Source: Mustelus asterias (lineage: Eukaryota). Taken from it: DNA of 64,000 nt. The position numbers and the translations under genes are program-made. The notes beneath the pieces were generated by a model, which searched no databases, was not told where the DNA came from, and was given only the letters and a program-made list of their open reading frames with translations. The stretch is from NCBI RefSeq assembly GCF_964213995.1, contig NW_027590159.1, forward strand, positions 496,001-560,000, in the 5' to 3' direction. Of the stretch, positions 1,481 to 16,320 are shown piece by piece (position 1 is the first letter of the stretch; the number at the start of each line of letters is the position of its first letter).

Positions 1481-3516
1481 AAGGATATTATTAAACTGGA
1501 AAGAATACAGAAAATATTTACTAGGATGCGAGCGGGAATTGATGGTTTAAGTTACAAAGAGAGGCTGGATGGACTGGGACTTTTTTCCTGGAGCGTGGGC
1601 GGCTTGGGAGTGGTCTTATAGAGGTCTATGAAATAATGAGGGGCATAGATGAGGTAGATAGTGAACATCTTTTCCCAAAGGTAGGAGAGTCTAAAACTAG
1701 GGGCAGAGGTTTAAGGTTCGAAGGGACCTAGTGCTGAACTTGCAGGGGCCCTGGCAGACATATTTAAAATGTCAGTATTCACGGGGGAGGTGCCGGATAA
1801 TTGGAGGGTGGCTCATGTTGTTCCTTTGTTTAAAAAAGGTTCAATAAGAAATCCGGGAAATTATCGGCCAGTAAGTTTGACGTCGGTGGTGGGCAAGTTA
1901 TTGGAAGGTGTGATAAGGGATAGGATCTACAAATATTTGGATAGACAGGGACTTATTAGGGAGAGTCAACGTGGCTTTGTGCGTGGTAGGTCATGTTTGA
2001 CCAATCTATTAGAGTTTTTCGAGGAGGTTACCAGGAAAGTGGATGAAGGGAAGGCGGTGGATGCTGTCTACCTGGATTTCAGCAAGGCCTTTGACAAGGT
2101 CCCTCATGGGAGGGTAGTTAGGAAGGTTCAGTCGCTAGGTATACATGGGGAGGTAGTAAATTGGATAAGACACTGGCTCAATGGAAGAAGCCAGAGAGTG
2201 GTTGTGGAGGATTGCTTCTCTGAGTGGAGGCCTGTGGCTAGTGGTGTGCCGCAGGGATCGGTGTTGGGTCCATTGTTGTTTGTCATCTATATCAATGATC
2301 TGGATGATAATGTGATAAATTGGATCAGCAAGTTTGCTGATGATACAAAGATTGGAGGTGTAGCGGACAGTGAGGAAGGTTTTCAAAGCTTGCAGAGGGA
2401 TTTGGACCAACTAGAAAATTGGCCTGAAAAATGGCAAATGGAGTTTAACGCGGACAAGTGTGAGATATTGCACTTTGGAGGGACAAACCAAAGAAAAACG
2501 TACAGGGTAAATGGTAGGACTCTGAAGAGTGCAGTTGAACAGAGGGATCTGGGAATACAGGTACAGAATTCCCTAAAAGTGACGTCACAGGTGGATAGGG
2601 TCGTAAAGAGTGCCTTTGGTACATTGGCCTTTATAAATCGGAGTATCGAGTATAAAAGTTGGAGTGTTATGGTAAGGTTATATAGGGCATTGGTGAGGCC
2701 GAATTTGGAGTACTGTGTACAGTTTTGGTCACCTAGTTACAGGAAGGATGTAAATAAGATTGAAAGAGTGCAGAGAAAGTTCACAAGGATGTTGCCAGGA
2801 CTTGAGAAGCTGAGTTACAGAGAGAGATTGAATAGGTTGGGACTTTATTCCCTGGAGCGTAGAAGATTGAGGGGAGATTTGATGGAGGTGTATAAGGTTT
2901 TGATGGGTATAGATAGAGTGAATGCAAGCAGGCTTTTTCCGCTGAGGCTGGGGGAGAAAAAAACCAGAGGGCATGGGTTAAGGGTGAAAGGAGAAAAGTT
3001 TAAAGGGAATATTAGGGGGGGCTTCTTCACGCAGAGAGTGGTGGGAGTGTGGAATGAGCTGCCGGATAAAGTGGTAAATGCAGGGTCACTTTTAACATTT
3101 AAGAAAAACTTGGACGGGTTCATGGATGAGAGGGGTGTGGAGGGATATGGTCCAAGTGCAGGTCAGTGGGACTAGGCATAAAATGGTTCGGCACAGACAA
3201 GAAAGGCCAAAAGGCCTGTTTCTGAGCTGTAATTTTCTATGGTTCTATGGTTCTATGGGAGAAATACAAAAGAGTCCAGAGAGGCATTTTGTTTCACTCA
3301 GAGGGTGGTGAGCGTCTGGAACGCGTTGCCGGGGCAGTCGTAGAGACACACACAATTTTGTATTTTAAAAAGCATTTAGGTACAAGGGTAAAATGGCTTT
3401 AGAGAGATATACGCTAAATGCGGACAGTTGGGACTAACTTAATGGCAAGAACTGGGCGGCATGGAGAAGCTGGGCCGAAGAGCCTGTTTCCATGCTGTAA
3501 ATATCTATGACTCTAT
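1481..3516 (+). mobile_element. Older 5'-truncated CR1 LINE 3' fragment (1481-~1725 and ~3259-3516), split by a nested CR1
   Basis: KDIIKLERIQK.. RT C-terminal coding stops near ..ttaaggttcgaaggg and resumes at gagaaatacaaaagagtccag after the nested element; ends in a tctatgac tail. Confidence 0.8.
1726..3258 (+). mobile_element. 5'-truncated CR1 LINE with open ORF2 RT segment (ORF 1769-3175)
   Basis: Motifs PGNYRPVSLTS, YLDFSKAFDKV, GVPQGSVLGP, KFADDTK, RPNLEYCVQFWSP; 3' (ttctatgg)3 tail. Confidence 0.95.
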
Positions 3517-3535
3517 GACACGCACTCTCCCCTGG

Positions 3536-3568
<33 letters not shown>

Positions 3569-3674
3569 TATCGGTCCATCTCACACACACACCCTCTCCC
3601 TCACACACACTCTATCCTGTCACAGACAGACACGCTGTCACACACACGTACAAACTCGGGTCTCACGCACACAT

Positions 3675-4472
3675 ATGATGCATTTTGGTGGATTGAACCA
3701 GGGCACGACTTATTCAGTTAATGGTAGCGCGTTGGGGCGAGTTACAGAACAAAGAGAGCTCGAGGTACATGTTCAGAGCTCCTTGAAAGTGGAGTCACAG
3801 GTGGACAGAGTGGTGAAGAAGGCATTCGGGATGCTTGGTTTCATTGGTCAGAACATTGAATACAGGAGTTGGAATGTCCTGTTGAAGTTGTACAAGACAT
3901 TAGTAAGGCCACACTTGGAATACTGTGTGCAATTCTGGTCACCCTATTATAGAAATGATATTATTAAACTAGAAAGAGTGCAGAAAAGGTTTAGCAGGAT
4001 GCTACCGGGACTTGATGGATTGAGCTATAAGGAGAGGCTGGATGGACTGGGACTTTTTTCTCTGAAGCGTAGGAGGCTGAGGGGTGATCTTCTAGAAGTC
4101 TATAAAATAATGCGGGGCACAGATCAGCTAGATCGTCAATATCTTTTCCCAACGGTAGGTGAGTCTAAAACTCGAGGGCATAGGTTTAAGATGAGACGGG
4201 AGAGATACAAAAGTGTCAGGAGGGGCTATTTTTTCACACAGAGGGTGGTGAGTGTCTGGAACAAGCTGCCAGAGATAGTAGTAGAGGCGGGTACAATTTT
4301 GTCTTTTAAAAAGCATTCAGATAGTTACATGGGTACGATGGCTATCGAGGGATATGGGACAAATGCGGGAAATTGGGATTAATTTAGGGTTAAAAACAAA
4401 AGGGCGGCATGGACAAATTGGGCCGAAGGGCCTGTTTCCATGCTGTAAACCTCGATGACTCTATGATTCCAT
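3675..4472 (+). mobile_element. 5'-truncated CR1 LINE
   Basis: ORF 3675-4382 with RPHLEYCVQFWSP and FFTQRVV; CR1 3'UTR gggccgaagggcctgtttcc. Confidence 0.92.
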
Positions 4473-5140
4473 GACATGTGCCTCAGACATCCTCACACAC
4501 ACACCACTCACAAAGTTTCTCTCTTTCACGCACACACTCATACAGAAGAACTCTCTCTACCTCGTCTGTCTCTCTCTCTCTCTCGCAAACACACCCTATC
4601 TCACATATATTCTCACACGTTCTCTATCTGTCTCTCTCATTCTGTCACCAATAATCTGCAACAAACTCACTGTCATGTGCAACTACATTATCTCTCTCTG
4701 TCACATACACACATTCTCTGTCTCTCATACACCCTTAGTCACACCCACTCTCTCCTCTTACACACAGACACCGTGTCTCACACATTTACAAACTTAGGAT
4801 CTCACACACACATGTCTCTCACAGAAACACCACACAGAAAATCTCTCCCTCTCCCACTCACACAATAACACCCTATCTCATACACATTCTCTCACATGCT
4901 CAATCTCTCTCTCATTCTCATCCCAACATCTATCACACACTCACTGTCACGCGCAGGTAAATTAACTCTCTCTCTTTCACACACGGACTCTATCCTGAAC
5001 ACTCACACATACCGTGTTTTTTCTCTCTCACTGTATCTTAGACACACTCTCTCTCTCACACACGTATACTACATAACCAACACATATCTCTTTCTCATAC
5101 ACATAAAGCCACACTCGTATATACACATACACACACACAG
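4473..5140. repeat. CA/CT low-complexity tract
   Basis: Degenerate dinucleotide repeats. Confidence 0.85.
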
Positions 5141-5142
5141 AC

Positions 5143-5364
5143 GGGGGAAAGGCAGAGAGCCGGGGGAGAGAGCAGAGAGCTGGGCGAAAGGGCAAATAAC
5201 CTGGGGAAAGGGCGAAGAGCCCGGGAAAGTGTAGACAGCTGGGGGGAAATGTTTAGAGCCGGGACAGAGGGCAGGGAGCTGGGGGAAAGGGCAAAGCACC
5301 CGGAGAAAGGGTAGAGACCCAGGGAAGAGGGTAGGGAGCTGGGACAGAGGGCAGAGAGCCGGGG
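5143..5364 (+). repeat. G-rich ~20-bp tandem repeat, ~11 units, consensus about GGGGAAAGGGCAGAGAGC(C/T)
   Basis: Periodicity directly visible; AGCTGGG at 5178, 5237, 5277 and 5337. Confidence 0.9.
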
Positions 5365-5627
5365 ATAAGTTCATAATTCTAGTCAAATCTTGACGTAGAA
5401 ACTTAGAAAATCGAAGCAGGAGCCGGCTGTTCAGCCCTTTGAGCCTGTCTGCCATTCACTTTGACCATGGCTCATCAATATCCTGATCCCGCCGACCACC
5501 CATATCCCTTGATCTCATTAGCCCCAAGAGCAATATCTAATATAGAACCATATTTGTATAAACATGTTTGATTAATTAATAAAAGCAAATAAGAGTCTAA
5601 CTTGTTCAATCGACTATTCATTCCCAG

Positions 5628-5927
5628 CGACACCATCTCCTCCGACTCTCTACAGCCTGGTCTCCTCCTGTCATCAACACAACTCCGACGGTTCCGTCAC
5701 CTATGGCTGTTTGGCGATGGACTACTCTCCAGATGTCTCCAAACTGACCTGGAAGAAAAATGGGCTGCCGATCACCACTGGGTTTAAGACATACCCATCA
5801 GTGAGAAACACGAAGGGAACCTACACACTGAGCAGCCAGTTAACCATCACCGAGTCAGAGGGAGACTGCAGCAAAATTGACTGTGAGGTTCGACACAGCG
5901 GCTCAGACAAAAGCATTGGAATGCAAT
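5628..5927 (+). CDS. IGHM: IgM heavy chain CH1 exon
   Basis: ttcccag| acceptor; encodes [15 protein letters not shown]..[33 protein letters not shown], matching shark Cmu1; T|gtaagt donor, phase 1. Confidence 0.96.
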
Positions 5928-6880: not shown

Positions 6881-7186
6881 GCGACATCCCCCCAACCGTT
6901 ATCCTTACCGTGAGTTCCAGTGACGAAATCACAAGCAGGAAATTTGCAACCATCGTCTGTTCGATCATCGATTTCCAGCCAAAGTCTATGACGGTGAAGT
7001 GGCTGAAGAATGGCCAACCCATGGATTCAGGAATTGTCACCTCTTCCGCCTGTGAAGTGAATGGGAACTTCTCGGCGAGCAGTCGGCTGATAGTCTCCGC
7101 TCGGGAATGGTTCAGCAAAGCAGTCTATACCTGCCAGGTCACTCATCAAGGATTCACTCAGAGTCAGAACATCAGCGGATCTCTGG
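6881..7186 (+). CDS. IGHM: IgM heavy chain CH2 exon
   Basis: tttaag| acceptor; [47 protein letters not shown]..; G|gtaaga donor. Confidence 0.96.
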
Positions 7187-8102: not shown

Positions 8103-8411
8103 GTCCTTCCCAGTGCCCTGATACCACAGTGACGATACAGCCACCACCAATAGAACAGGTCTTAATGGAGGCTACCGTGACCTTAACCTGCATCGTTTCT
8201 AATGCTCCTTATGGAGTCAACGTGTCCTGGATCCGAGACAGGAAGTATTTGAAATCAGAGATTGCCGAAAAGCCTGGAGCGGATCCTGACAGCGTGGTCA
8301 GCAACTTAAACATCTCGACACAAGCCTGGCTGAGTGCGGCTGTGTTTGACTGCGTGGTGAGCCATCAGGATCTGCCGACTCCGTTAAGAAAATCCATCCA
8401 CAAGGAAACAG
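8103..8411 (+). CDS. IGHM: IgM heavy chain CH3 exon
   Basis: ttcacag| acceptor; [48 protein letters not shown]..; G|gtgagc donor. Confidence 0.96.
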
Positions 8412-8906
8412 GTGAGCTGAGAGATTGAAGCAATAAATGCGTCACTGTGTCTATTTCCAGTGTCAGTGTACTGGTCAATATTCAGTATTCAGTGCATTAA
8501 TGGTGTCTCCTGATTGGAAACTCCACTAACTAAAGACTCTGGTCCTGCAGATATTTTTACGGGGAGATTTGATGTGTTGATGAATGAAAAGTGAACTGAA
8601 GGCGATGTTATTGGGTTTAGATCGAATAAGGAGGGAGGAGCCTGATGTGGAGCATGAAAACCAATAAAAAAGCAGATCAGTTGGGCCGAAGAGCCTGATT
8701 CAGTGCTGTAAACTTTCTGAAACTTTCCAGTCCAACCCGCTGAGTTATTTGAGAAAACAATTGTGTTCACCTCTCCTCCAAGCTGGAAGTCAAAAATAGA
8801 AACATTTAAAATCGAAAGCGAAGCACATTTTTCTGATATCTAGCCAGCAGTTTCATTGTTTCCAGAATTCTCCAGTTTATTGACATTTATTCTACATTTT
8901 CTGCAG

Positions 8907-9298
8907 ATCTAAATCCGCGGGAACCGTTCGTCTCAGTCCTCCTGCCCTCGGCAGAAGAAGTCTCCGCTCAGAGATTTGTCTCCCTCAGCTGCTTAGTGAG
9001 AGGTTTCTCCCCCAGAGAGATCTTCGTCACATGGACCGTCAACGACAAGCCAGTGAATCCTGGGAACTACAGGAACACCGAGGTGGTCGCGGAGAACGGC
9101 AATAGCTCCTTCTTCATGTACAGCCTGTTATCCATTGCAGCAGAGGAGTGGTCCAGCGGCGCTTCTTACTCCTGTGTGGTGGGACATGAAGCCATCCCCT
9201 TGAAGATCATCAACAGAACAGTTGACAAATCCAGCGGTAAACCCAGTTTTGTGAACATTTCCCTTGCTCTGATGGACACCGTTAATTCATGTCAATGA
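8907..9298 (+). CDS. IGHM: IgM heavy chain CH4 exon plus secretory tailpiece; internal donor after 9236 for the membrane form
   Basis: ctgcag| acceptor; [48 protein letters not shown]|[20 protein letters not shown], with penultimate Cys and NIS sequon; AGCG|gtaaac donor. Confidence 0.97.
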
Positions 9299-15764: not shown

Positions 15765-16320
15765 TCAGTCCTGGATGTGATTAACAGCAGAATCCACCTC
15801 ATGTAAGCAAATGTGAACTTGCTGGTGTCTCAGCAGGGAAGTTGACCGAGTGAATCCCTTCCCACACTGAGAGCAGGTGAATGGCCTCTCCCCGGTGTGA
15901 ACTCGCTGGTGTGTCTGCAGGGTGGATAACTGAGTGAATCCCTTCCCACAGTCAGAGCAGGTGAACAGTCTCTCCCCGTATAAAATTGATGGTGTCTCAG
16001 CTGGGTGGGGGAATCTCGGAATCGCTTCCCATAATCAAAGCAAGTGAATGGTCTTTCCCCAGTGTGAACTCTCTGGTGCTTCTGCAGAGTGGATGAATCT
16101 CTGAATCCCTTTCCACACTCAGTGCAGATGAATGGCCTCTCTCCAGTGTGAACTCACTGGTGTCCGAGCAGGTTGAATGACTGAGTGAATCCCTTCCCAC
16201 ATTCAGTGCAGATAAAAGGCCTCTCCTCTGTGTGAATTCACTGATGTCTCCACAGGTGGGATAACTGAGTGACTCCCTTCCCACAATCAGAGCAAGTAAA
16301 TGGCCTTTCCACAGTGTGAA
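15765..16320 (-). pseudogene. C2H2 zinc-finger pseudogene, last exon remnant with 6 fingers
   Basis: Repeats of HTGERPF(T/I)CxxCGKGF..L..HQ..H; TGA stops at 16238-16240 and 16154-16156, one Cys>Tyr, 1-bp deletion near 15979; 5' part replaced by CR1. Confidence 0.92.

Follow-up and report, generated by a model that had tools for sequence, protein, structure and literature searches.

The Repeat and Its IgM Gene

The window, as the stretch analyzed here is called, comprises 64,000 nucleotides of genomic DNA from Mustelus asterias and carries an immunoglobulin heavy-chain gene that can be identified, from its exons, as a secretory IgM. The intron that precedes the first constant exon contains a short G-rich tandem array, with 263 bp between the 3' end of the array and CH1. 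The corresponding JH and VH segments are located 9957 bp and about 11.5 kb upstream, respectively, both beyond the edge of the window. The features at the locus are as follows:

4480..5141, plus strand: CA/CT-rich low-complexity tract, C-rich on the sense strand, 5' of the array
5142..5364, plus strand: degenerate G-rich 20-bp minisatellite of 11 units, a shortened copy of the intron array of an IgM clade (Tandem Repeats Finder, unit register, and paralog comparison)
5364..5366, plus strand: junction of a germline deletion that connects the array with position -262 from CH1, with 2-3 bases of microhomology
5628..5927, plus strand: IgM CH1 exon with an open frame, AG acceptor, and GT donor, 88% to Triakis scyllium IgM at the amino acid level
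6881..7186, plus strand: IgM CH2 exon
8105..8410, plus strand: IgM CH3 exon (approximate bounds, from tblastn)
8903..9298, plus strand: IgM CH4 exon and secretory tail (approximate start), 98% to Triakis scyllium IgM

Tandem Repeats Finder (TRF) delimits the array at 5142-5364, with a 20-bp period, 11.2 copies, and 65% matches. Its 222 bases comprise 107 G, 68 A, 33 C, and 14 T (48% G and 15% C), and they include AGCTGGG at 5178, 5237, 5277, and 5337 together with two canonical four-G-run motifs. A preliminary description of this DNA had reported a G-rich repeat of about 11 units of about 20 bp with four AGCTGGG motifs 5' of Cmu1, and the TRF result, the base counts, and the identity of the exon establish that it is real, although the “many” AGCC motifs also mentioned were a generous reading of a count of four. 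The opposite, C/A-rich bias ascribed to the surrounding intron applies to the adjacent 700 bp or so (GC skew of -0.37 to -0.73 in the flank at 4401-5000 versus +0.47 in the array bin) but not to the intron further upstream, where positions 1600-4400 are themselves G-skewed.

The four AGCT motifs exceed the mean of 0.92 obtained with dinucleotide shuffles of the array, a count reached in 8 of 2000 shuffles that take no account of the tandem structure. When measured against the per-unit rate of the repeat family (0.11), the presence of AGCT in 4 of 11 units has a probability of 0.03. The broader hotspot motif WGCW is not above the shuffles in the window array (6 versus 3.5, P=0.09), and predicted hairpin folding is no better than that of shuffled sequence (z of -0.41, with a score that covers hairpins and not G-quadruplexes). 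The abundance of AGCT in this one copy probably reflects chance.

The cluster in the window is found three times in the assembly (L001-L003, on contigs C667, C306, and C127), with 99.2-100% identity over several kb, suggesting that the copies are haplotype duplicates or arose by duplication very recently.

The Array among IgM Clusters

A degenerate CH1 pattern located 76 CH1 sites in the genome, each of which was taken with up to 9.5 kb of upstream sequence, and the array is present at 73 of them. Later searches contributed 14 additional CH1 loci, 11 with the array, bringing the carriers to 84 of 90 IgM loci, a total that includes haplotype duplicates and corresponds to 37 distinct CH1 sequences once near-duplicates are collapsed. 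The 90 do not include L131 and L137, which have a broken or partial CH1 and no array, L136 and L138-L141, in which the stretch lacks CH1, or L142, which is of unclear class and also without the array. All 84 carriers have the array in the sense orientation, with 40-50% G, and none has it in antisense. Thus, the positional conservation 5' of CH1 on which the earlier proposal of a switch-like element depended is borne out across IgM clusters, and the orientation is the same throughout. Because these clusters multiply by duplication, which preserves any feature of the founder's intron, the conserved position of the array and its high number of loci are both attributable to cluster duplication.

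Typical arrays measure 452-868 bp, with a median of 600 bp among 58 loci, and end about 980 bp before CH1, so that they mostly occupy the interval 1.0-1.8 kb 5' of the exon. They contain a median of three and a maximum of seven AGCT motifs and have G4Hunter-type scores of 0.8-1.1. Unit number ranges from 4 to 35 among the IgM paralogs, and close pairs differ by gaps of up to 28%. Most carriers also possess a C-rich minisatellite with a 14-bp unit, 1-1.5 kb in length and situated about -3100 to -1700 from CH1 (as in L046), which abuts the G-rich array and produces an abrupt reversal of skew; the window cluster is without it. This C-rich neighbor was found in 77 of 84 carriers and in none of the six non-carriers, and a repeat of opposite strand bias has therefore been kept about as well as the G-rich array itself.

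Comparison with paralogs identifies the window array as a deletion-shortened remnant, and about 720 bp of the unique intron of typical paralogs is missing between it and CH1. In L099, the array has disappeared in a 3 kb deletion that ends within the last 40 bp or so of the array; outside the deletion, this locus is 97% identical to L068. Only four units are left in three other loci (L057, L088, and L095). In L099, the L057 group, and the window, the CH1 frame remains open even though the array has been lost or cut to 4-11 units. Germline deletions that end in or at the array, as in the window and L099, could reflect fragility of the repeat or of G-quadruplexes.

Clade Restriction and Other Heavy-Chain Classes

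In a CH1 protein tree, all 33 distinct carrier rows fall within one clade (support 96/96), which also holds Triakis IgM and one Scyliorhinus IgM, the reference rows being proteins that carry no intron data. IgM of the nurse and bamboo sharks branches outside it, as do three non-carrier rows, whose neighbors are Heterodontus and a second Scyliorhinus IgM. L073 was omitted from the tree owing to a frameshift, and L099 and L123 were merged into near-identical rows.

The array is absent from the complete J-C introns of the other heavy-chain classes, including IgW (0/3), IgNAR (0/2), an IgNAR-like gene (0/1), and divergent IgM (0/4), even at seven mismatches per unit. These 10 introns also lack any other AGCT-rich repeat, with AGCT densities of 2.2-4.4/kb. 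The class assignments are supported by similarity to Triakis, as the IgW clusters have a CH1 that is 82% to Triakis IgW and the IgNAR clusters are 89-95% to Triakis IgNAR C1. Seven further loci (L144-L150), with inferred labels of light-chain or TCR type, are without the array as well. Accordingly, the expectation that the repeat might be common to IgM and IgW clusters fails. Shark switching has been described as bidirectional between IgM and IgW, with neither S regions nor cryptic promoters involved (PMC4279169, PMC8201067, and PMC4588147); an array that is lacking in the IgW partner cannot account for the switching so reported.

Evidence from other organisms is confined to contigs. In those from two other organisms, the array borders the same unique flank of the intron, at about 94-95% identity (X6 record 14 and X7 record 24), and one contig of this kind differs from the window array at 3 of 174 bases. 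None of the contigs aligned to the window and L068 runs from the array to CH1 in one piece. The joining of array and flank in two close relatives shows shallow conservation only. Joints in these aligned contigs are effects of repeats or paralogs and do not count as somatic junctions.

Arrays outside Immunoglobulin Loci

The repeat unit is not confined to immunoglobulin loci. Among the best non-identical matches, long homogeneous arrays of the unit were found on contigs that include C27, C40, C45, and C845, and an exact 27-mer of the repeat occurs 571 times genome-wide, with the first 100 occurrences listed falling on three contigs. The longer arrays belong to a repeat family whose members span several kb and which gave 86 anchor matches. 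Of 20 copies sampled, 6 have the array, always at the same point, and the others have different sequence there. The presence of array-filled and other alleles at this site indicates that the unit was seeded and expanded at an unrelated locus. Array copies in this family contain 18-172 units or more, reach several kb, and are homogeneous, with AGCCG, and hence an intact CpG, in 351 of 351 scored units. No immunoglobulin homology was detected in the 20 sampled stretches; likewise, no tRNA was detected in the 20, no Rfam match was obtained in 14, and L158 has no recognizable coding frame by eye.

Members of this family (L151-L170) are 93-99% identical over at least 4 kb and have subunits of about 900 bp inside. 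Two contigs, C194 and C420, each hold a member of this family together with an IgM cluster. The idea that the arrays of the family are subtelomeric was entertained and dropped, the contigs being unplaced and 0.15-2.6 Mb in size.

AGCT Motifs, Hotspot Density, and Constraint

The consensus unit contains AGCCG, i.e., a CpG, and all four AGCT motifs of the window fall at this CpG position. In 708 units taken from 28 loci with distinct CH1, AGCCA, AGCCG, and AGCTG were counted 168, 162, and 66 times, respectively; these counts share ancestry and are descriptive. The AGCT motifs of the array therefore look like products of CpG deamination of AGCCG, with the AGCT-making form being the rarer of the two possible products. 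Across the family, AGCT amounts to 5.6/kb, so it cannot be regarded as the hallmark of the repeat that the window copy (18/kb locally, from four sites only) had suggested. WGCW, at 12.1/kb, is sparser than in the remainder of the introns that carry the array (14.5/kb), and RGYW reaches 41/kb across the family and 59/kb in the window versus an intron background of 20/kb.

Known switch regions provide a scale for these densities. The mouse S-mu intron possesses 432 AGCT in 5625 bp, or 77 AGCT/kb and 82 WGCW/kb, and S-gamma3 has 108 AGCT in 4918 bp, with 22 AGCT, 33 WGCW, and 67 RGYW per kb over the whole intron (PMC9149575). A functional synthetic S region was built from nine 80-bp repeats, each with four AGCT, at 46% G (PMC4245955), and enhancer proximity has been found able to outweigh motif density (PMC9149575).

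Divergence between paralogs was pooled from 22 of 24 close pairs, two having been dropped with flanks above 6%. Mismatches numbered 411/12428 (3.3%) in the array, a count that misalignment within repeats can inflate, 526/20419 (2.6%) in the unique flank, and 117/6402 (1.8%) in CH1. By this measure, the array appears to be under no sequence constraint beyond that of neutral flank.

Origin and Interpretation

Taken as a whole, the restriction to one IgM clade, the varying unit number, the deletions, the young relatives outside immunoglobulin loci, and the lack of constraint make it highly probable that the repeat is a passenger minisatellite and not an early class-switch region. The likely origin is a single insertion of a 20-bp minisatellite into the J-C intron of one ancestral IgM cluster; the repeat would then have been copied passively as this founder multiplied, with unit turnover and CpG decay giving rise to an occasional AGCT. 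Judging from its composition, a transcribed array would fold into G-quadruplexes or R-loops without serving in switching, and this capacity may render the site prone to germline deletion.

A more ambitious reading would make the array homologous or ancestral to tetrapod S-mu and common to shark heavy-chain loci, as its place 5' of CH1, its G-rich non-template strand, and the four AGCT of the window copy might seem to recommend. That reading is scarcely credible and already largely refuted, since the array belongs to one clade only, its AGCT motifs, ascribed to CpG decay, are about 14-fold sparser than those of S-mu, and IgW, IgNAR, and divergent IgM are without it even though IgM-IgW is the exchange reported (PMC4279169). 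It is also improbable, though far less so, that the array has some role in the intron unrelated to recombination, for example as an enhancer or in pausing or splicing. Such a regulatory element would suit the constancy of position and orientation within a transcribed intron at 84 of 90 loci, but clusters with an open CH1 have lost the array or retain only 4-11 units (L099, the L057 group, and the window), the array evolves like its flank, and the other heavy-chain classes do without it.

Co-option of the passenger array presents a subtler case. Here the repeat would act as an R-loop- and G4-forming substrate for AID and as a homology block for IgM-to-IgM exchange, with breaks resulting from staggered WRCY on the top strand and RGYW (bottom-strand C) in each unit. 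Several observations speak for this idea or against a simple passenger, including retention at 84 of 90 loci, a sense-strand G content of 46-49% (matching the 46% of the synthetic S region), RGYW at twice background, the G4 motifs, a position 1-2 kb before CH1 and an orientation that resemble S-mu, the germline deletions ending in or at the array (window and L099), and the joining of the array to the same flank in two other organisms. In the window copy, moreover, RGYW (59/kb) is near that of the S-gamma3 intron (67/kb), and AGCT (18/kb) approaches its 22/kb. Even so, we regard co-option as unlikely, and as slightly more doubtful still the proposition that, in carcharhiniform sharks, a minisatellite captured by the founder of the dominant IgM clade turned into a convergent, AGCT-poor switch-like element operating through R-loops and G4 and through AID at the staggered WRC sites of each unit; in that same proposition, the shared array would allow VDJ exons to move among dozens of IgM clusters. 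Of the two possibilities raised in the preliminary description, a proto-switch and a simple minisatellite, the tests of class, locus, AGCT, and constraint argue against the former, and the latter, offered as a fallback, is favored.

The passenger reading also agrees with what is known of other repeats. GC-rich, strand-asymmetric minisatellites (VNTRs) are a familiar class in vertebrates, with head-to-tail units of 10-60 bp and variable copy number. The array resembles them in its 20-bp unit, its interspersed variant units, its copy-number change between paralogs, the CpG decay of old arrays, the homogeneous young arrays elsewhere, and the occurrence of filled and empty sites, and differs from them in nothing essential. 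With S regions it shares its site, the intron preceding the first constant exon, and a G-rich sense strand. S regions, however, are typically 1-10 kb (PMC2442634), whereas the array measures 222 bp in the window and a median of 600 bp in typical loci. Relative to mouse S-mu, with 432 AGCT in 5.6 kb, it offers 0.2-0.9 kb and a median of three AGCT, with seven at most. In addition, its WGCW is below intron background, its AGCT is not dense at 5.6/kb, it has no partner before other heavy-chain classes, and it occurs outside immunoglobulin loci too. Inter-cluster switching in the nurse shark involves the same gene family and intron, with IgM clusters in multiple miniloci. The junctions, according to work from the Hsu laboratory, reportedly fall within the intron immediately 3' of JH. 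That process differs in joining IgM and IgW without S regions (PMC4279169, PMC4588147, and PMC8201067), and the array is missing from IgW here.

No earlier description of the repeat was found in the literature searched, in which coverage of subscription journals was poor, and the accessible parts of PMC2435157 and PMC12227049 contain nothing on intron repeats. If the array is a passenger, it can serve as a marker for tracing the duplication of IgM clusters, and it cautions that a position conserved between clusters that arose by duplication says nothing about function. Were it co-opted, the view that sharks are without switch-like DNA would be overturned, and a convergent switch-like element, if true, would amount to a living replay of S regions arising from satellite DNA. 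The genome itself holds a natural control for such co-option, L068 carrying the array that the almost identical L099 lacks.

Additional Features of the Heavy-Chain Loci

Several other features were observed in the course of this work. Long tandem arrays with units of 48-50 bp and 16 bp lie 5' of the IgW V exons in L111-L116, each with at most one AGCT. In the divergent IgM clusters L122 and L123, VH and JH are adjacent in one tblastn stretch at about 3100-3600, which suggests a germline-joined VDJ. In locus L143 (C71:2920200-2930199), V and J are adjacent and the constant exons have 50-72% similarity to IgNAR C2-C5; this locus represents a putative divergent IgNAR-like or UrIg-type gene. Three IgM clusters (L135, L139, and L141) are seemingly short of one or more constant exons, and we take these short forms to be IgM1gj-like. 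Near the end of L110, the minus strand has an open frame of at least 391 residues that resembles, by eye, a retroviral envelope fragment. Finally, the window contains an 84-bp tandem repeat on the minus strand (15812-16320) coding for degenerate C2H2 zinc-finger-like units, as well as units of about 1.2 kb, several of them in tandem, at 27548-36157, as seen in repeated TRF matches and in two nearly identical frames, one at 27548 and one at 28769.
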